From assembly GCA_965644265.1 (NCBI GenBank), contig OZ286468.1, positions 14,136,001 through 14,200,000 of the forward strand: DNA of 64,000 nt, written 5' to 3'. Made by a program: the position numbers and the translations under genes. Origin of the DNA: Glycera tridactyla (lineage: Eukaryota). The notes under the pieces are model-generated. The model had not been told where the DNA came from. It did no database searches and saw nothing but the letters and a program-made list of their open reading frames with translations. Shown piece after piece: positions 2,455-64,000 of the stretch. Each line of letters starts with the position of its first letter. The first letter of the stretch is position 1.

Positions 2455-3002
2455 TATACCTGAATGAACTCATCTGGCAGAGGGCATTTTCCCATCCCTA
2501 TCTTTGTTTGTGTGGAAATCAGGAAGTATTTAAAGTCCCAGGGCGAATGAAATGCATACTTTTCTCACTGTGCCGTCTGTTGATTCCATATGCAGATGTG
2601 ACAGTTTATTTCAATCCTATTTTAGTACCACTATACCTGACCACTGGCAACTCATGATTATTTCACTGAGAGTGTGCAGCAGGGCACCACAACATCAAAA
2701 TTATCCACCTGCCCGGTGGGCAGGTACTTTTTCAGATCTACCTGCCCCCTTCAAAATTCAGCATGCCCCCATTATGTGTTCCTTGCATATATTATCATTC
2801 TCTACCTGTCCATCGGGCAGGTGGATTAGAAAATCAACCTGCCCACCTTGGAAATCTACCTGCAAGGGGCAGGTGGGAGGCCATCTTGTCGTGCCCTGTG
2901 CAGTCATGAGGGATCTTACCTGGAATTCTGGGTTGTGATGTTACCTACCTTCTCCATGTATGAGTGGATGTGAAGAACTCCCAATCTGCTTGGTCTTCTG
3001 TA

Positions 3003-52890: not shown

Positions 52891-54513
52891 ATCGCTGCTG
52901 CTGTTGCTGTTGCTACTTCTAATGATAGTGATGGTGAAGGTGATGGCGATGGCGATTTTTAGTTTAGATTCTTAATTTTTCTTCGTCGTACATGAAATGA
53001 TGTACAATTGCTCCCGTAAAGGGTGCGTTCCCAAGTCGACGATGACGATGACGATGACGACGATGCCAATAACACTGATGAGCAGATAAGTCTAATCAAG
53101 CTATGCTACGATGGTATGCGGTGTGCGTGGCTTGGTGGAAAATAGGAGAGCATTTCGAGTGTGACCTGGCAACTGGGAAATGTTGACCCAAAAGAAGGAA
53201 TCGTCAAATGGAATACGGAAACTTCAGTGTTGGCTCTCTCGCCTGACAGTGTATCATATGCATAGGGCTCGCCTAAATGAAATTCAAACATCTGCTCAAT
53301 GGGTGAATGACCAGCACCGACCCAGACATCATCTTGCCATTCATCTTACCAAATTCTCAAATGTCCGATTCCATTGCATTTGTCAGAAGTTTCTGTGACA
53401 GTTGTCCCAATGGGTCTGATCATAGATACATTAGATGCCGGATTATCATTCACTTCAAGCTAAAATACTTCCACGCATGCTGTAAAAGAACAGGCAATTA
53501 TATCATTTTCTGTTCGATGTAGGAAGACCGTAATATAAGCTTTTTCATTCAAGAAGCAGACTGTAGTATGGCGAATCCAGCTTAATCCCAGGAGACATGA
53601 CCGAAATGGCTCAGTTCAGGCTGACTTATGGCAAGCCATATCTGGCATTGGAACGGGTAGCCAGAAATGTGCCATTTGAAGCACTGAATGGCAAACCATA
53701 TGCCATATCGGCCATAGCTTGCCAGTATAAAACCAGGACTGGCCCATTTCGGTCATGTACGCTGGGTTGCTCCTGGTGAGTGATAATAGTCTCATCCAGC
53801 TCATATATCAAAAGATGATTCCTGCTTTAGCTTGCGCAGAGCCAGACCCGACCTCGTACAGCCTTTTAGCCTACTAGCCAGCGACTCATACCCAAACTCT
53901 TGTCTGCACTCCTTTCAGTATTTTAGATCATGAAAGCTGCATAGTCCAGGAACCATCTCTCGACACAAGGGGATTGGTACCAGATCTCTTCTGTGGGTGG
54001 GTTGAAGGCAACGCACTTCTCATGCGGTATAGATGATAGACGAGTAGATCCAGTTCATCAGCTTTATTCCTCCAACCAATACAGCATACAGCATGGCTTT
54101 GAGGAGGAATGGGAAGCTCGATCAATTCACAGCACTGCAACCATGTGACGTGTAGAATACCCAGTGCTGATCTAGCTTCCCAAGCCTCCTTTACAATCTT
54201 ATATAGGCTCGACAAGAGGGTGGTGGAATTGCAACATTCACTGACATCACTGCTAAATTTAGCAGTGATGAGGTGGTTATTTTTGGATATTACGAGGTGG
54301 TTGAGCAATCAGAGAGCAGGTGTCTTGCAAGATGGCGGAGGTGTATTGCACCATACACCGGCGGGATGGTGGAATTCCCCACCTGTCAGAATAAGATGGA
54401 TGGCCACATTCCTGGCCGGAGGCAAGAATGTCTTACCCTTTTCAGAATTACTTACAGACATCTTGGATTTCCCAGACCCCTGCTTTGGATAATATTCATC
54501 CAAATATAATTGC

Positions 54514-55891
54514 TGAGATATTACATCTCACCTCTGATGCTAACGTCCTCGTAGCATTTGACACTACCATCAACACGAGGGGGACAGGTCGGATCCTGGT
54601 CATGAAGCTCTGATACCACCTACAGCCAGGCGACAGTCAACCGACAGCCAATCAGATACATAGTATCCAATCAGCTATCAGCTACCATCAGCCACAGCCA
54701 GGCAGAGTCCAACTGCACTTCCAGATCTCAGCAGACACAGCTGCCAAGTCCCCATCGTGTCAAGGCATTATACAATCAAACGTAGTATAAATACATATGA
54801 ATGCAACATTGAATCAACCATCGACACAGTTCGTGAGGCGTGATATCTCAAGTTTTGGCGTGATTGACTCAAAAACCTTTTTGTTCATTCTAGGGTTTTC
54901 TTTAGGGTTTTGATTGGTTCAAAGGCGGCTGACGGGTGTCAACCTTAAGAGAGGAGGTCACGACAAGGAGAGCATGGTAGATGAATCATCCCATAATTCA
55001 TCCACCAAACTCCCCATGTCAAGACATGGCAAAAATAGCCGACGAACTATCCAGAGAGTTCGTCGACCATATTCATCATGGCCAGACCAAGGTAAGAAGG
55101 GTGTGGATTCATGTTATTCATGATACCACGGTGAGTATGACTCAGGTTGTGTCCAATATGATTCTCATAAGAACCATAGCGATCCCCAATTCCGGGGGTA
55201 TGGTCTCCATATCAATATTAAATCAATGCCATTACCCTTCTGTTTGAACCGGTTGAAGCCAGTTTTATCTTATACAATGATTCCAAATATCCATATGTGA
55301 ATTTTAGTTTCACTTTCCCATCAGTTTCTCCCTTATGAGATGATAGGTAGCCTATATGTGTTCAATTTGACTTGAAGCGGTCGGATTTGTTGGTCTTACG
55401 CCGATTCCCCGGATGACGACAGTCTCGCCACCCAGCGGCTATTCTACACACCAGCAGCCTGCAGGCGAGCCCGCTAGGTCTGCTAGTCTCTCGCAACTCC
55501 CGCTTCGACTTTATGACTAGATTTATAGCTTCTCGTTAACCGCATCTGCGGTCAATCCATTCCTCGCCTCGATAGGCGTGAAATTGTTTCGGTTATCGTC
55601 ACGTACGAACGACTGCTATTCTCCTCAGTCTGATAAGACATTCGTTGAAAGGAAAAACAGCCGTCTTTGTGTGAGTCATCTCGTAAATCGCAGCGAAGGC
55701 GACCGCCTTGGCCTCGCCTTGCACATGATCACGCCCAACTCGCTAAATTCCTCTCTCTTACCCCACGAACCGGACCATATCACGTCTATTTTTAGCCCAG
55801 ACGTGATTGATTCAGCGAAGTACTCCCAATGTTCGCTTGTCGATAGTCAATTTGGCCGGCCCTACATGTCTTACTGAGATATTACATCTCA
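54514..55891 (-). repeat. Putative 3' LTR (about 1.38 kb)
   Basis: Bounded by TGAGAT...ATCTCA; the same 21-mer occurs at both ends. The partner LTR is off-window, so this is not verifiable here. Confidence 0.4.
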
Positions 55892-57384
55892 CCTAGGCGT
55901 AAGCCTAGCATCCGCAAACAGAGTATGACTTCACACTACAATCCGGCCAGGTTACTTAGAATACATATTAAACATCATAGAACCCAGTTTGTCCTAAGAT
56001 TGGCAGTCAAAGGGTCTGAATTCCGGCCCCATGCTCAATTCTGATGCAATATAGATTCTAACACACTGAAACGTGACCGCCATTGTTACCAAACGACAAA
56101 CTGGATTTTTATCAAAACAACAATAGACAAGAACTGTGGTTCTTCAGAGAATGTAAGATAGGTATTACAGACTCCGTAGAGTTACAAGAGAGGGAGAAAG
56201 GAGAGGATAGCAAGAAGAGAAAAGAAGAGAAAAAGCTCCACATCAATTCAGGAGGGCACATAGACCGGATGGCGAATTTTCCACACAACCCACAGTCGCA
56301 TACTAAGTTATACGGCTGCGTGTTGAAGTCGTTGCCATACCATCCAAGCATATGCGCCCTACATGTCATACTAGCGCCAATGGCGCAATGGCGCAAAATT
56401 TCAAAACACATTCCAATGAATCAGAAATCGACAGGAATACAACTCCACCTCCTCCGTATCATATACAAATGATTACTTAGCGAAGAATGTCAATCTTTTC
56501 GCTCCATAATCCGTGGAGAGCTTCGAGCACATTTCGTAATTCTAGCAGCCTCAGTACATCGTCCAATCCGGCTCAGGGTTATCATGCGACTTCCGTGCTT
56601 ACGCGATACGCATATCATCACCCCAAGTCACGGATTTCGCTGCTTATAGGCTTAGAAGTGGCAGGCTCCATGATTCGATGATTTCGTGCCACTCCATGAT
56701 ATCGTAATCGTGATATGCGCATCTGCCGAGCCCAGACAGGTATCCAAGGGCAGTTTTCGTCCAATCGTGGTGCACCATGTCTGGAACTCAAGCAAATGAA
56801 CATATCAGTCAATAACTGTACGATACCGTCGAGAACCACACCATCAATCATTTACAATATGCCTGTTAATCCATAATACTATCCCAGAATATGTACAAGA
56901 TTATACACACACAGCAACCTTAAATGCGATTAAATATTGATTAAATGCGATTAAATGCGAGTAAATATGGGAACCATCCAATAACAACTTTCAACCAGAG
57001 ACAAGACACGGCCACATAGATTGGGACTGAGAACACGGCCACGAACGGCTGGCATGACTCGTAAAAGACAGTGGCCATGGTCTAGAATAAGCAGCTCTTA
57101 CTCTAGCCTCGTATAACCCCAGTTCTCATGGTACCCAGACGTCACATATCCTAAGCGGAACCAAGTATCCTAAGCACACATACACAAAATCAAGGAAACT
57201 GGTTCCACTCAGGGATGTGGTACAGTCAATTGATTGATTGAGAGAGGTTGCCTGTCAATCACGCAATCGACCGTCTTACCCAGACCTGTCAGTTTCTCGC
57301 CAGAATATAGCAGATTATAAATATAGAATGCCCCTCAACCAGACCCCAAGCCTACCATATACTAGAGAGATAGCAAAAATCATT

Positions 57385-60300
57385 CTATTCCTCGAGCGGC
57401 GCCAGGGGCGTCTTACTGAACGTCACCCTCTGATTCTTAGTATCCACCATAATGTTCTGCGCCGACTTAGGCTTCTTAGGGATGACTGGTGAGCCAGGAG
57501 GTACCATCAGAGGTGCTGACTCCTTCTTATCACAATTTGCCACTTGGCTAATTGATGGATAGATAAGCTTAGTGGCCTCAGGAGGATCATAGATACCACT
57601 ACAGCCATATCCATCACACAAGGGTTGACATATCTTAGGGATAATAAAGACCTTATCAGCTACCATGATTTTGAATATCGCTGTGAATCGTCCATTCAAT
57701 AGCTGATTCACGACTCGTTTCTGCCACGGCCAGAGAAATAGATTGGCCGGTGGCGACATCGGATCGCGGCCTAGCTTGTTTCCTATGACTAAGCCTCTCC
57801 AATACACTCCTAGGTAACCCCAGCAGTACCTGTTCACCACGTGATATGGACCAGGATTCCCTAGTCCCATTAAATGATAGTTAGACATCGCTCCTGGTAA
57901 TTTCATGATGAAAATGTCCACTGTATCGACCAAGTTACCCAGCTCCAAATATAAATCGCAACGTGATCTGAGCTTAGTCACGTAGAGTTCACGTAGGAGA
58001 TAAGCCGTGAGAAGAATCAAACCTAGGATGGATACAGTTGAAAGAACCACCACTGATGATGATACAAAATCGGCTAGATCTTCAGGACTCCTCGTTGTCA
58101 TAAGAGAGCCCTCATTTAGCATTGGGAACCGATGGTCTACAAGGGCAGTGTCTTCTGCCAGATTTCGCATAACTTCGTTGGGCGTGTCAAGCATCTTCTG
58201 TGCCTCAGTTGGCTTGATGACACCAGCTATACTATATGCTAGCATGGCCTTTTCTAAGGTCCTATACGACCTCCTAGTATAAACAGCCAATCCTAAGGCT
58301 CCAGAAGCTACTATCATCCCAAGAACTGATAAGACGTTAGCCAGAATGAAAAAGTCGCCTGCGGTATCGAAGACCCACGTACTAGCCGGAAGCTGCTTGA
58401 TAGGATCTACTTCGAGACCTTCCTTAGCCCTTTTCATGACTGAAGCTAGCTTCATAGAATAATCATAATCACGGTTTATATTGACTTGAAAATCATCTCC
58501 TACCCTGATTTTAGGCATAACAGGTAGCCATTTTTCTTTGTAAAGTGAGCTTCCAGTAACCTTGTCGATATCTGTCATGTCGTATACCATTGAAAGAGCG
58601 GCCAGGTTTATCGGGTGATCCACGACAAACTCCTGCGATGGGGGTAAGCAATTGTTAATGCGGGGTGGTAAGGCGGCCGTAGAGATTGAGTTGGAAACAT
58701 GCAACGAGCATTGACATTGAAGCTCTATCTGGCAGTATACACAGCCAGGTCTTTTCTTAGGTAGCTGACCGCCACACTGCAGTAGCATGGTATCGGCGTT
58801 ATGAACAAGGACCCTGCCTTCCCCCACATCTATCAGGTCTACGATGGGATCCATGCTCTCGAACCGGAAACCACAGTGTTTGTCAACCTGCTCTGTACGA
58901 TCTAAGAATATTGAAGCCATACAAGAAGGTTGGTCCATATCAAAGATTTTCAAGACCGAGGTGCATCTGAAAGCAGTCGTGTCATCACATCTGGCCAGCT
59001 GTTTGTGTGACATCTCGATATAATTCATTCTGTCTTCTGTAACACCGAAGTATTCAACTTCGGTTTTCAGTCTTGTAGTCTGTGTGGCAACATCCGTGAT
59101 AGGGGTGTTATGAATCTCTACTGAGTACAGGAAGAAGTCCTTGCTCAAGGATGACAACGGAAATTCCAACGTGATCATGAGATATTGATCGTTGGTCCTA
59201 AAATAATTTACCCTACCAAATCTATAATAATATTGAGGTGAGATCTCTGTGAGATGGGACTTAGGATAGTCATACCTCATCTGATCCTGTAAAGACAAGA
59301 TAGTCTGAGTCAATGTTGCCTCGTCTACCAGATAAGGGCTCAGCTTACCCTGGACCAGATCATGGACTGCTTCCATCATCTGTTCCATCTGGTTTGTTAG
59401 CGCGTGCATTCTTTGCATCATACTAGCCAAGGCGTTTCCACTCAAGATACTGTATCTCATCACCATCCATAACTTGTCATCTACATGCTCCCCCAATGCT
59501 CGCATCTGCTGCTCCATCTCTGTGTGCATAGCTGAGATGGCCCCTGCCAGGTTTTCGAACCTCTGAGATGTAATGTCCATAAACGAAGCTGTCTCAGCCT
59601 GGAACTTAGTGAAACGTCTGGCCAACAGGGCTTGGTTCTCACTAACGTGTTTTACGACGTTAGTGAGCCTTGTGACGTCACTATTGGTAGCCAACCCAAA
59701 CACCTTCTTCCCTAACCAGGAAAAGGGGTTCCAGCGTTTCACCCGACCAGACGTCAGCGCAGGTACGTGGTACTTCACCATATGATTCATATATTCTAAG
59801 TTATCAGAAGTTCGATCTAACAAGGCCATAGTCCGCTTTTGCATAGTTTGTCTATTATTAGCCCACTTTAAGAATTTGGTCCTTTCTAATGCAGATAGAT
59901 TAGCTATATTTTCTTCTCCAGTTTTCGTCGAACTTAGCCAATTTCGCGAGTGAACACGCATATCACGAATTATGTCACGCTTTCCTCTAATCATGGAGGA
60001 TGTTGAATCATTCAATCTGGCGCATCCCAGACTCTCGCATCTATCAGGGGAACTAGTGGGCCCAACGGTTACGTTGACTACGATTGGAGCGCGAGTAGTG
60101 GTAGGTATATCCCACGTCTGATTCATGCAATGTTCTCGTGTTTCATTAATCGGTGTATTGAATAGTCGAGACGCTATGTCCATCAGCAATGATACCTTAC
60201 AGAATTCCTTTTGCCCATCCGTCGGTTTCCGAGCACGGTCGCCCTCCTCCTTCGCCGCGAGAGTCGTCTGTCTCCTCAGCCTGGATCGTTGGTTCGTAAC

Positions 60301-60645
60301 GTTATGCGCGGTTAACGATAGGATGGATGACTGCACTTTGTTCAAGTCTAATATGAGCAAATCACGATATTCCAATAGTTTTTCGACTACATCCGACTCA
60401 CTTTCGCACTGGTTCTTCGCACACTCATCCGGCAGAGCCCCAAAGAGCTGTTTGGTCATTACTTTCGGAATCTTAATGCGAAAAACATGCGTCCATGCGG
60501 ATGCAGACGGATATAGCGTCTTTAGAGGGTGAAAACTGACTCCATAATTAGGTCTACTTACTGGATCTAAATCAGCGGTCACGACCGACAGCCATATCAT
60601 AAGCGCTGGTCCCAATATAGCCCAAAACACCCTCGTAGTCTTCAT
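57385..60645 (-). CDS. env: Envelope / class I fusion glycoprotein (baculovirus-F/errantivirus-like), about 1086 aa
   Basis: Signal peptide MKTTRVFWAILGPALMIWLSVVTA; furin sites RLRR, RGKR and RVKR, the last followed by fusion-peptide-like WNPFSWLGKKVFGLAT; heptad region, Cys-rich ectodomain, TM segments; splice acceptor TTCTCGTCTTGTCTGTTGTAG| 11 nt before the ATG. Confidence 0.88.
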   Translation of the reverse strand: MKTTRVFWAILGPALMIWLSVVTADLDPVSRPNYGVSFHPLKTLYPSASAWTHVFRIKIPKVMTKQLFGALPDECAKNQCESESDVVEKLLEYRDLLILDLNKVQSSILSLTAHNVTNQRSRLRRQTTLAAKEEGDRARKPTDGQKEFCKVSLLMDIASRLFNTPINETREHCMNQTWDIPTTTRAPIVVNVTVGPTSSPDRCESLGCARLNDSTSSMIRGKRDIIRDMRVHSRNWLSSTKTGEENIANLSALERTKFLKWANNRQTMQKRTMALLDRTSDNLEYMNHMVKYHVPALTSGRVKRWNPFSWLGKKVFGLATNSDVTRLTNVVKHVSENQALLARRFTKFQAETASFMDITSQRFENLAGAISAMHTEMEQQMRALGEHVDDKLWMVMRYSILSGNALASMMQRMHALTNQMEQMMEAVHDLVQGKLSPYLVDEATLTQTILSLQDQMRYDYPKSHLTEISPQYYYRFGRVNYFRTNDQYLMITLEFPLSSLSKDFFLYSVEIHNTPITDVATQTTRLKTEVEYFGVTEDRMNYIEMSHKQLARCDDTTAFRCTSVLKIFDMDQPSCMASIFLDRTEQVDKHCGFRFESMDPIVDLIDVGEGRVLVHNADTMLLQCGGQLPKKRPGCVYCQIELQCQCSLHVSNSISTAALPPRINNCLPPSQEFVVDHPINLAALSMVYDMTDIDKVTGSSLYKEKWLPVMPKIRVGDDFQVNINRDYDYSMKLASVMKRAKEGLEVDPIKQLPASTWVFDTAGDFFILANVLSVLGMIVASGALGLAVYTRRSYRTLEKAMLAYSIAGVIKPTEAQKMLDTPNEVMRNLAEDTALVDHRFPMLNEGSLMTTRSPEDLADFVSSSVVVLSTVSILGLILLTAYLLRELYVTKLRSRCDLYLELGNLVDTVDIFIMKLPGAMSNYHLMGLGNPGPYHVVNRYCWGYLGVYWRGLVIGNKLGRDPMSPPANLFLWPWQKRVVNQLLNGRFTAIFKIMVADKVFIIPKICQPLCDGYGCSGIYDPPEATKLIYPSISQVANCDKKESAPLMVPPGSPVIPKKPKSAQNIMVDTKNQRVTFSKTPLAPLEE

Positions 60646-60852
60646 CCTGTCTGCTTCTACAACAGACAAGACGAGAACCAAATTAACCCTAGTCTATAGT
60701 AATTCTCACCCTACTCTCGATTTATGTCGATTTCTATACAGTCCCAATTCTGCCTTCCCATGTCTACATTGCCTATTATTTGTTGTCTTACAGATTGAGA
60801 ATTTCCAGGTTTCCTTTGTGTGAATACTAACCTAGTATTACCAAATCCTAGC

Positions 60853-62202
60853 ATGGCTCCCCACTATCAGGATCTACCCCAATTCTTACGCTCCCTGGTG
60901 GAGGACTTCCTCGCCCACTATGGGGTGAGGCGAGTCGATGTCCTTACCGGAGAGGACGTCCTAGTCCTAGTCCTTCAGGCAGATCGCCAGGACTGGGACA
61001 GGTCCATGGGCGCCGTCCTCACTCGGTATGCCGAGGACCGCACTAGCCAGCTGATCCTGTCAGCATGGCAGGCAGTTCGGAGGGTGGCCATCTCCACCAG
61101 GATTTTGGATTTCGTGCCCAGGCATGCGGATCAGTATTCACTGATCCAGGGCATCGACATGATGTTGGACATCCCCAGGATTCCTCATCAGTCTATCCCT
61201 CCTTTTCCTGGGAACAATGTCCTTCCTCCCCGGACTCCTGAGAGGACCCTTAGGGTGGGGCCCAGAGACCACGCCAATGCGAGGACTCTGTGGTCCGATG
61301 ATGATGGGTTCGATGAACCCTCATCACCTCCTCCCAGGGTCATCTCCAACCCTTGGGATGTGGACTCTGACCTCCCCGATTCTGATCAGGGAGGGACCGT
61401 CCTCCTTCCTGGAGCCCCCTTGGACATCCCTAAGCCGAAGAAGGCTAAGAGGAAGTTCAAGAAGTTTCCTCCCAGGGTACGACCTGTGGCCCTGCCGTCA
61501 GATAGTGACGACTCGGCCTTGTTCGTACCTGCCCTACGAAAACGTCGTCCGTCGTCGGACGACGACGCAGGAGATTCTGTCTTTAGTGATGGCCAGGATG
61601 CTTCTGCGTCCTTAGACCAGGTCTCAGACCATGGTTCAGCCCATGGGTCGGGCAGTCCGTCCAGTTACGTGGACTCCAGTCCTTCTGATCCACCGTTTCC
61701 CCCCAAGAAACCAAAAAAAGATACCCGGGGGAAAAACAAGGGTAAGGGTAAATCCCCCACGGGCTCCCCCCAGGATGCAGGCACCCTTTCTGCTAGCAGT
61801 TCAGTAGACGCCCTGGATCTGACGCAACCACCTCCCCCCATTCCATCCACCTCCAACTCCACTGTCCGTCCCAATGGAAATTCCAGTGTCCGGGACCAGG
61901 CCATTTCCAATGCCCTGTCCCTGGCCCTGGACGTGGCTCTGGGACCCAGTCCTAACCCCACCCCCTCCGGATCCCCTGGCCCTGACCCTATCCCCTCTGG
62001 ATCAGTTGGGCCCCCGTCCGAAGATATGGAGTGGGAGGCCACTGGTCCCGAAGCCCTTATGGAGGACTCGGGTGTACCCCAGGCCTTTCCAGGTACATCT
62101 TCGGAGTATCTGGAATGGATCCTCTGTGGGTTCACCCACATTCCTACTCAAGAGGAGTTGGCGGCCTGGCAGGGAGGGTTAGCCTATTCTTATTTCCATT
62201 AA
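60853..62202 (+). CDS. Antisense ORF of the Gypsy element (449 aa), unknown function
   Basis: Uninterrupted frame from agcATGg; about 100-aa globular-looking N-terminus, then Pro/Ser/Asp-rich region with basic clusters KPKKAKRKFKK, RKRR and KKPKK. Confidence 0.65.
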   Translation: MAPHYQDLPQFLRSLVEDFLAHYGVRRVDVLTGEDVLVLVLQADRQDWDRSMGAVLTRYAEDRTSQLILSAWQAVRRVAISTRILDFVPRHADQYSLIQGIDMMLDIPRIPHQSIPPFPGNNVLPPRTPERTLRVGPRDHANARTLWSDDDGFDEPSSPPPRVISNPWDVDSDLPDSDQGGTVLLPGAPLDIPKPKKAKRKFKKFPPRVRPVALPSDSDDSALFVPALRKRRPSSDDDAGDSVFSDGQDASASLDQVSDHGSAHGSGSPSSYVDSSPSDPPFPPKKPKKDTRGKNKGKGKSPTGSPQDAGTLSASSSVDALDLTQPPPPIPSTSNSTVRPNGNSSVRDQAISNALSLALDVALGPSPNPTPSGSPGPDPIPSGSVGPPSEDMEWEATGPEALMEDSGVPQAFPGTSSEYLEWILCGFTHIPTQEELAAWQGGLAYSYFH

Positions 62203-63017
62203 ACCTTCCCTAGTAACGCTGCTAGTAGGTATTAGAATTGTAGTCGAACGGGGCATTTAGTTTTATTATTTTTATTATTATGTATATATATATTATTTTT
62301 GGTTTCCTCTATTTAACCTCATTTATTCCTATCTACTCTTATTTAATCACGTATTCTGTATATATGTATATACATCCTTATTTTTATAACATCAGATGTC
62401 TTCTCAACCTATCTCATCTATGTTGCCCATTATTATCCTCCTTATCCAGTCTGTCACCCAATTTCTTTCCTTCCTCTGCCGGACTGCTCCCTGTACCTCC
62501 CGCAAGACACAGAGCAGTCCTTACTAACCTCCTGGTAAATTCTCATATTCTACCCGCTACTTCTGGTCGAAGGAGAACCCCACAAGTCCAGCCAAGTTCA
62601 CCACACCACACCCTCACAAGGTGAGTACAATCACATCTTTTTACAGATCTCTCTGCTTAAGGACCCAAGGTGGCAGGACCCTTTGGTGCACCTATATACA
62701 GGACAATACAACATAAACTACTCACACCAGATAGCTATCAAAGAATCTGTTGGCTACAGTTCATTCAAACTCAGATTCCGGCAAATCAATGCACATCTCA
62801 CTATAGCCCCGAGTGGCGTAATCAAGCTAATGCGTGTTCGTTTTCACACAGCTATCTTACAGCAAACTCGGTTGATTCCGCTATCACCATGCGTATATCT
62901 ATATACCAACATTAATACAGAGGCGGCTAGGGCGGCGTCTTCCAAGGTCATCTCATTGTGACCCCAGATATCGCCTAATTGTATTTCTATAGCCCAACCT
63001 AGCCTTACCTCGAGCGC

Positions 63018-64000
63018 TCACATGGATTTGTCATCGGGCAGCAGCTTAAATGGCGGATATTCGTACGTGACGCTTCCTCGCGCCACGCTTATAGTCGGAT
63101 CGGCGAAGATCACGACCAACGCCGCAGAATCGCCTCCGTCGTTCAGTCTCTCGTGTAAAGCTGCTTGACTTCGAGTCATAGGGCCGCGGGAGCGCAAAAC
63201 TGGGCGGTTTTCGACGGCTGGGGTAGCCGATTTCTTAGCCTTGACCAAAGAGTGTCTAACCAAATCACGTGGCCCCGGATCTGCTCTCACTCTGTCATCG
63301 TTGGGCGTGACATCTTCTAAGTTCAAATTGCGCAATCTACTCTCGGTTTCATCACGAAAAAGCGACAATTTGTTGCCATGTATAAGTGAGCCATACAAGA
63401 CATTTGTTCTTACATCCTGTAGCTTAAATAATACACCGCCTAGGGTGTCTATGATTCGATATGGGCCTAGTCGTTGATCATCAGTTTTGCCTACTGCCTG
63501 ACCCGCTGGCCTGGCGGTTTTCATCCATACTAGATCACCTATCTGGAACTTAAATTTGCTCACTTTGTATCTTTGCTCGTACACCTGTTTGTACTTCTGA
63601 GCAGATTTCCGGATATTCTCTCTTGCTATCTCTCGATGTGCATTTAATTCCGGCAGTAATGCTTCCATTACTGTCTGCTCGTCCCTCAACAGTAATGAGG
63701 GATCTCTGACATGACAATACTCTCCAACCGAAGTATCCACCCCTGTAGCCAAAAACATAGGTGAATACCCAGAGCTATGTGAAACTGAAGTGTTTAGGTT
63801 CAATCTCACCACTGGCAGATATCTAACCCACTCTTTGGTCTTGCTTACGAGCATCCTAAGTAAAGACAGAATGGAACTATTGACTCTCTCAACCTTGGCA
63901 TTACTTTCGGGTCTATGGCTACTTGTGAACAGACGCTTGTAGCCTAACTGCTTGGCTAATTCCTTCATGAGCAAACTTCTGAAACTCTGATGTCTGTCTG
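63018..64000 (-). CDS. pol: Pol C-terminus: integrase core and GPY/F module (5'-truncated by the window edge)
   Basis: SDRHQSF...TSSHRPESNAKVERVN...NTSVSHSSGYSPMFL; FQIGDLVW...LGPYRI. Confidence 0.92.
   Translation of the reverse strand, partial: DRHQSFRSLLMKELAKQLGYKRLFTSSHRPESNAKVERVNSSILSLLRMLVSKTKEWVRYLPVVRLNLNTSVSHSSGYSPMFLATGVDTSVGEYCHVRDPSLLLRDEQTVMEALLPELNAHREIARENIRKSAQKYKQVYEQRYKVSKFKFQIGDLVWMKTARPAGQAVGKTDDQRLGPYRIIDTLGGVLFKLQDVRTNVLYGSLIHGNKLSLFRDETESRLRNLNLEDVTPNDDRVRADPGPRDLVRHSLVKAKKSATPAVENRPVLRSRGPMTRSQAALHERLNDGGDSAALVVIFADPTISVARGSVTYEYPPFKLLPDDKSM

Follow-up and report, generated by a model that had tools for sequence, protein, structure and literature searches.

The window analysed here, a 64,000-nucleotide stretch of Glycera tridactyla DNA (contig OZ286468.1, positions 14,136,001 to 14,200,000), contains the 3' part of a retrotransposon on the reverse strand and, opposite pol and env on the forward strand, an ORF of 449 amino acids (60853..62202). 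This antisense ORF starts with an ATG at 60853 and lies within a stretch that is free of stops from 60799 to 62202 (467 codons from stop to stop). env (57385..60645, reverse strand; 1086 amino acids) encodes an F-type fusion glycoprotein that matches Pfam PF12259 (Baculo_F) with 28.9 bits at a cut-off of 24.1 (E 5.9e-7). Its ATG at 60645 and the ATG of the antisense ORF face each other head to head, 207 nt apart; these coordinates confirm the open codons and the spacing reported in a preliminary description of the locus. The 3' end of pol (63018..64000, reverse strand) has its stop at 63018, the integrase end is read at 63018-63998, and integrase C-terminal Pfam matches are present below cut-off. 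The gap between pol and env that holds the antisense ORF is ~2.4 kb. The 3' LTR (53803..54521, reverse strand; 719 bp) has one mismatch to the 5' LTR (L060:6245-6963), which lies with gag and the remaining pol outside the window in the adjoining stretch L060; end to end, the element measures ~17.2 kb. Because the two LTRs differ at 1 of 719 bases (99.86% identity), the element is young, i.e., recently inserted. In the translation of L060, gag comprises 661 amino acids with CCHC knuckles and is followed by pol, whose motifs indicate the order protease-RT-RNase H-integrase. gag and pol share one frame with a single TGA between them (L060:3355-3365), suggesting readthrough or a nearby frameshift, and the segment between protease and RT (L060 ~2500-2900, reverse strand) resembles a degenerate dUTPase-like one. 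Altogether, the LTRs, gag-pol and the PF12259 match support the Gypsy and env identity put forward earlier and, with it, an assignment to errantivirus-like, env-bearing Ty3/Gypsy retrotransposons.

Searching for related DNA with the antisense ORF as query gave 41 matches with 80-100% identity (40 scored of 74 candidates); one match is a partial duplicate within another locus and two are pieces of one locus, and 39 loci were compared as family A. First, the mean pairwise dN/dS of the antisense frame over these 39 copies is 0.21, compared to 1.43-2.36 in four other frames over the ORF, 0.20 in env, 0.10 in pol and 0.89-1.26 in the spacer behind the ORF; the mirror frame has a dN/dS of 0.37 and contains 537 stops versus 5 in the antisense frame. 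Second, changes common to at least two copies (153 nonsynonymous, 280 synonymous) have a dN/dS of 0.22 (bootstrap 0.18-0.27) versus 0.70 for private changes (198 nonsynonymous, 116 synonymous; Fisher p 7.7e-14), which is the pattern expected if the protein matters during element replication and decays after insertion. Third, the antisense frame is unbroken in 24 of the 38 other copies, a count obtained from copies that were picked by likeness to the ORF, a sampling that favours those retaining it; env is unbroken in 9 and the pol part in 12, both being longer, and breaks per kb amount to 0.35 in the antisense ORF, 0.42 in env and 0.30 in pol. The preliminary description had named a frame interrupted in most young copies, or a lack of purifying selection, as what would speak against a gene; all nine of the youngest copies (≥96% identity) are open, and selection is purifying. 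Because the frame is open in the youngest copies, is under purifying selection and recurs in other families and assemblies (see below), we regard it as near certain that the antisense ORF encodes a genuine accessory protein and that purifying selection maintains it about as strongly as env.

That the ORF is instead a by-product without function for the element, whether as the GC-rich shadow of a sense feature, through a nested insertion or as a host fragment carried along as a passenger, appears highly improbable to us. The ORF has 58% GC and low complexity, which favour long open frames, and no homologue was found outside these elements. However, when the pol-env gap (60646-63017) was shuffled block-wise 2000 times, ≥449 stop-free codons never arose in any frame, the longest run having a median of 136 and a maximum of 322 codons. 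Moreover, no long sense-strand ORF overlaps the antisense ORF (the longest has 160 codons), the mirror frame is dense in stops, the context of the ATG is identical in 39 of 39 copies, and shared changes are under purifying selection in four families. Other coding candidates nearby were rejected. The frame upstream of 60853 stays open further in many copies; as an N-terminal extension it was dismissed, given that single-base indels shift the frame and the window copy has a stop. A second antisense ORF at 62244-62961 has a dN/dS of about 1 and many frameshifts.

The predicted protein has three parts. The conserved N-terminal domain (residues 1-125; 60853..61227, forward strand) is predicted to have an alpha-beta-beta-alpha-beta-beta-alpha order. 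It is followed by a Pro/Ser/Asp/Gly-rich, likely disordered tail (residues 126-400; 61228..62052, forward strand), in which the basic clusters, the ALDLT sequence and an acidic M[DE]W motif occur, and by a conserved C-terminal segment (residues 401-449; 62053..62199, forward strand) that is found in family A only and has no match in family B. Beyond residue 125, 48% of residues are P, S, D or G. Each part is under constraint, with a dN/dS of 0.15 in the N-terminal domain, 0.27 in the tail and, for shared changes, 0.10 in the C-terminal segment. The basic clusters and the ALDLT motif noted earlier are indeed present (residues 194-204, 229-232, 284-289 and 320-324). Among 28 full-length family A proteins (from 25 of the 39 copies and from L098-L100), the basic clusters persist, ALDLT or ALDLS is found in 27 inside an otherwise variable stretch, and DMEWE is found in 26.

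Structure prediction of the N-terminal domain, a check proposed in the preliminary description, returned the alpha/beta order but neither high confidence (AlphaFold2 pLDDT 47) nor a credible fold match. The matches to designed proteins and to PilO/GspM-like folds were rejected, the best being a designed cage (Z 8.9, rmsd 2.1, 76 aligned). The corresponding domain of family C, one of the related families described below, was predicted with the same order of elements at pLDDT 77 and pTM 0.69; its best match in the fold search had Z 4.6, and Foldseek gave none at E 0.001. This order of elements is also that of LAGLIDADG domains; LAGLIDADG is not among the matches listed for the fold searches with either model, and there is no such Pfam match. 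No known DNA- or RNA-binding domain was detected by sequence or fold search, and Pfam gave nothing above cut-off for the antisense proteins. A collection of 5.8 billion proteins contained no homologue of the whole protein or, among its longer proteins, of the N-terminal domain alignment. The single match among 1.84 billion representatives was a summed low-complexity repeat match and was discarded. Likewise, the ESM Atlas (A and C domains) and PDB sequences held no homologue, and scans of IMG/VR and metagenomes with the N-terminal domain alignment, and of IMG/VR with env, were blank. In the libraries searched, the protein thus appears to be an orphan whose homologues lie only within these elements.

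Within the same genome, the N-terminal 120 residues as query gave 150 scored matches of 1453 candidates, with identities down to 36-39%. Among the weaker matches, 20 of 20 sampled loci have the gene opposite env and just upstream of it; four are divergent family A relatives and 16 form family B. Family B is ~72% identical to family A in pol and ~51% in env, and its antisense protein has ~277 amino acids. The gene has a shared-change dN/dS of 0.14, and its frame is intact in 10 of the 16 loci (L104, with an uncovered stretch in the alignment, is not counted as intact). The N-terminal domains of A and B are 36-40% identical (hhalign 99.9%), and by these measures the family B protein is a homologue of the family A protein in the same place. 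It contains PMDW and a C-terminal RKRH.

Elements with F-type env are very abundant in this genome (2801 first-look PF12259 candidates; 64 matches among 72 scored). From these 64 Baculo_F matches, 20 loci were taken for inspection, four of which are without pol in the stretch examined. In families C (L125-L127) and D (L132-L136), whose RT is 34-37% identical to that of A, the interval from env to the pol stop contains an antisense ORF of ~170 codons; L130 and L131 were placed in family C through selection counts and the RT tree. Shared-change dN/dS is 0.10 in family C (5 nonsynonymous, 20 synonymous; 34 copies) and 0.06 in family D (14 nonsynonymous, 92 synonymous; 34 copies). The C and D domains are probably homologous (hhalign 49.9%, E 1.6e-4). 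Neither family has a basic cluster or an M[DE]W motif in the tested frame. As an observation on these families, the end of the ORF in L126 (C) and L133 (D) runs into a phase-0 donor, whose GT is conserved in 32 of 33 covered copies for L126 and in 34 of 34 for L133; this donor adjoins the pol stop and is followed by pyrimidine-rich sequence, and any second exon would lie antisense to the pol tail, overlapping it. Six of the 20 Baculo_F loci (L118, L120, L122, L123, L129 and L137) have no clear equivalent ORF; L123 and L129 have forward-strand frames near or over the pol tail. In an RT tree of this genome's elements only, A+B, C+D and five loci without a clear ORF separate, these five being the ones among the six that were long enough. 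Because the tree is unrooted and long branches are flagged, it does not establish a single origin of the antisense ORFs.

Beyond this genome, an env alignment search of a partly scanned public collection identified at least 10 loci, and three of the three contigs with ~1 kb upstream of env, from two other assemblies, carry an antisense ORF there. In L218 and L219, it encodes 294 amino acids with a pair dN/dS of 0.20 (p 5e-10), and in L219 integrase is also found upstream. The two proteins have a conserved N-terminal domain followed by an acidic low-complexity tail with the basic cluster ARKQRR. L221, from a different assembly than L218 and L219, encodes a protein that is cut short, with an N-terminal domain, 28% identical to theirs at the N-terminus, and then an acidic low-complexity tail. 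The outside-assembly protein has no relative in the Glycera genome (best E 0.47). In hhalign, the initial helix-strand-strand segments of the A domain and of the outside group fall into a plausible register; alignments that link A/B, C/D and the outside group to one another do not outscore column shuffles, 4 of 60 and 25 of 60 of which score as high. Because homology does not exceed the shuffles, the A/B, C/D and outside ORFs may be different genes in one slot.

The acceptor-like sites that the preliminary description placed ahead of the ATG are present. The two predicted antisense acceptors (60775..60808, forward strand) have CAG ending at 60793 and 60808; each CAG is present in 39 of 39 copies, against a background of 26 invariant trinucleotides out of 190 nearby; family B has a similar acceptor-like site ahead of its antisense gene. 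On the other strand, a predicted env acceptor (60657..60680, reverse strand) lies 11 nt before the env ATG, and its AG is conserved in 37 of the 38 copies that cover it. We infer that the 207-nt gap accommodates a back-to-back pair of acceptors and not a promoter common to both genes, and the conservation of these acceptors suggests a spliced antisense RNA from the 3' end. From the 3' LTR to the env stop, only two strong forward-strand donors are predicted, with GT at 55092 and 55131 (55089..55136), each kept in 36 of 36 covered copies. Because 12 of 31 nearby GT sites are also invariant, this conservation shows no excess over the local background and lends the donors little weight. RNA contigs from one study (four thin, unstranded runs that we guessed to be RNA) cover the ORF and have no joint at the predicted sites, and one contig of these unstranded runs crosses the acceptor region unspliced; we give these contigs no weight for or against splicing. 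Two other features of the non-coding parts deserve mention. At 62621-62646 of the window, a forward-strand donor-like GTGAGT is followed 26 nt later by TTTTACAG; this element is identical, including its flanks, in 23 of 39 copies, has a similar counterpart in family B and is too short for an ordinary intron. The 2.9-kb region between env and the 3' LTR (54522-57384) is well conserved over 36 copies; a coding role was rejected given frequent frameshifts and lack of codon periodicity, and the region may hold RNA elements.

Altogether, these findings support a model, to which we assign a probability of about 55%, whereby the accessory gene antisense between pol and env encodes a likely nuclear regulator of element expression that is made from a spliced antisense RNA. 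In this model, the antisense RNA would start in or beside the 3' LTR and be spliced across env, joining one of the donors near 55092/55131 with the acceptor at 60793, a route that we hold to be slightly better than an even bet. Entry of the protein into the nucleus via its basic clusters is quite probable. At a little under even odds, the N-terminal domain would then engage element DNA or RNA or a host factor, with the tail recruiting or blocking chromatin co-regulators (CtBP via ALDL[T/S]), thereby tuning LTR transcription or countering silencing. In RAI2, ALDLS is described to bind CtBP (PMC11187106). Of the nuclear accessory regulator proposed in the preliminary description, the accessory protein gene is upheld by selection and recurrence, and the nuclear role is read from the basic clusters and ALDL[T/S]. 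Basic clusters in A, RKRH in B and ARKQRR in L218/L219 argue for such a role; the lack of a basic cluster in the tested frame of C and D, and of ALDL[T/S] in B, C and D, argues against it. Similarly, the suggestion that ALDLT is a CtBP-like motif gains from the retention of ALDLT or ALDLS in 27 of 28 family A proteins and loses from the absence of ALDL[T/S] from the homologous B protein and from C and D (tested frames).

A real gene could also act as Rev or CERV do, with the protein binding unspliced genomic RNA and exporting it from the nucleus. Because env has a conserved predicted acceptor, the genomic RNA contains splice sites, and an element with a spliced env needs export of unspliced RNA. 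The long conserved non-coding stretches beside env could contain a response element, the basic clusters could bind RNA, and CERV of Cer1, itself an animal Gypsy element of C. elegans, acts in this manner as described (PMC10309623). However, the published account has CERV made from a sense, gag-linked spliced mRNA and occupying the env slot, env-bearing families of another RT clade have no clear equivalent ORF, and the fold searches did not find an RNA-binding fold. We consider RNA export unlikely as the function of the antisense protein.

The diversity of the antisense ORF bears on another possibility. Its mean p-distance is 0.109 compared to 0.045-0.054 for pol and env, i.e., it is twice as diverse, yet the rates of private synonymous change per codon match (0.26, 0.24 and 0.24 in antisense ORF, pol and env) and CpG density is alike in the three. 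Because diversity is doubled at equal private synonymous rates and similar CpG, older haplotypes appear to persist in the antisense ORF. Distances in the ORF follow those in pol poorly (rho 0.42-0.46, versus 0.94 within the ORF), and L101 is 89% identical in pol but 48% in the antisense protein. The persisting haplotypes are likely reshuffled by recombination, a conclusion weakened by the low signal of the control within pol itself (rho 0.46-0.60). This diversity and the poor agreement with pol would fit an antagonist of host defence (piRNA/siRNA or a restriction factor) that works away from chromatin and is exchanged among subfamilies as part of an arms race. Nevertheless, selection is purifying overall, the extra diversity is largely synonymous, pol's own low rho undercuts the recombination argument, and the basic clusters point toward the nucleus; such an antagonist is about as improbable to us as an RNA exporter. 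As a separate observation, the most variable coding parts of family A are the 5' part of env (59750-60350) and the antisense ORF (60853-62200), which together resemble a swappable host-facing cassette.

Our preferred reading, a nuclear regulator encoded in antisense, has parallels in other elements, and antisense extra genes as such are already known from plant and fungal Gypsy elements and from deltaretroviruses. Additional ORFs in antisense orientation have been reported from Retand (TRP28), maize Grande (gene23) and rice RIRE2 (PMC11963269, PMC7264820), and brtn of Botrytis Boty is a fungal example. These ORFs resemble the one described here in being antisense to gag-pol, downstream of pol and kept in most copies; their function is given as unknown, and GENE23 of Grande is nuclear (PMC7264820). 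The TRP28 domain (PF04195) of the Retand type is absent by Pfam from our protein and 26 aligned relatives. Among deltaretroviruses, which carry antisense HBZ and APH-2/3/4, HBZ is described as spliced, from the 3' LTR and nuclear (PMC10186651). The likeness lies in an antisense protein gene in a gag-pol-env element, a spliced 3' RNA, predicted here, and a likely nuclear protein with short co-regulator motifs, as predicted here from sequence. Unlike HBZ and APH, the gene resides in a Gypsy element rather than a member of the Retroviridae, no sequence similarity and, by Pfam, no bZIP was found, the predicted domain being alpha/beta instead, and a Tax/Rex-like partner is not evident. Like CERV, the protein is an accessory orphan encoded by an animal Gypsy element, and we infer a nuclear role for it as well; CERV is a sense-strand protein joined to gag exons in the env slot (PMC10309623), whereas the element described here has both env and an accessory gene in antisense. 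Micropia antisense RNAs are described as non-coding.

The element resembles the 'ancient errantiviruses' of Chary and Hayashi (PMC13524379), which are described from across animals as Ty3/Gypsy elements present in multiple copies and composed of gag, pol and an F-type env, features that it shares. In a word search of the text and seven supplements of that paper, 'antisense' and 'accessory' are absent. As described, its first filter admitted non-insect elements with a pol-env gap of ≤1000 nt, and for some phyla a manual extension of 3000 nt was made; the gap here is ~2.4 kb. The literature searched, including PMC13524379 and PMC5408684 as far as available, contains no antisense gene between pol and env of animal Gypsy elements, and an earlier annotation in Repbase/Dfam, subscription papers or bioRxiv supplements is possible.

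env-bearing Gypsy elements are usually treated as simple gag-pol-env retroelements. A fourth gene, antisense and under selection, in at least four families and in other assemblies indicates that such elements can carry accessory genes like complex retroviruses, and an orphan family under selection of env strength is a candidate for control of element expression or evasion of host silencing. For annotators, it follows that the opposite strand of long pol-env gaps should be inspected. We advance tentatively, as something we would on balance not expect to hold in full, that there is a broad lineage of env-bearing invertebrate-type Gypsy elements with a complex-retrovirus plan, in which a fixed antisense pol-env slot encodes ancient, fast-evolving regulators that act in the nucleus, contain an alpha/beta domain not described before and are produced from a spliced antisense RNA of the 3' LTR, having arisen independently of HBZ; such a lineage would have been overlooked since surveys filter long pol-env gaps. 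Finally, four identical weak matches (L224-L227; G000:C40 ~57.96-58.02 Mb) are spaced at 20.5 kb, and this spacing points to a large tandem repeat.
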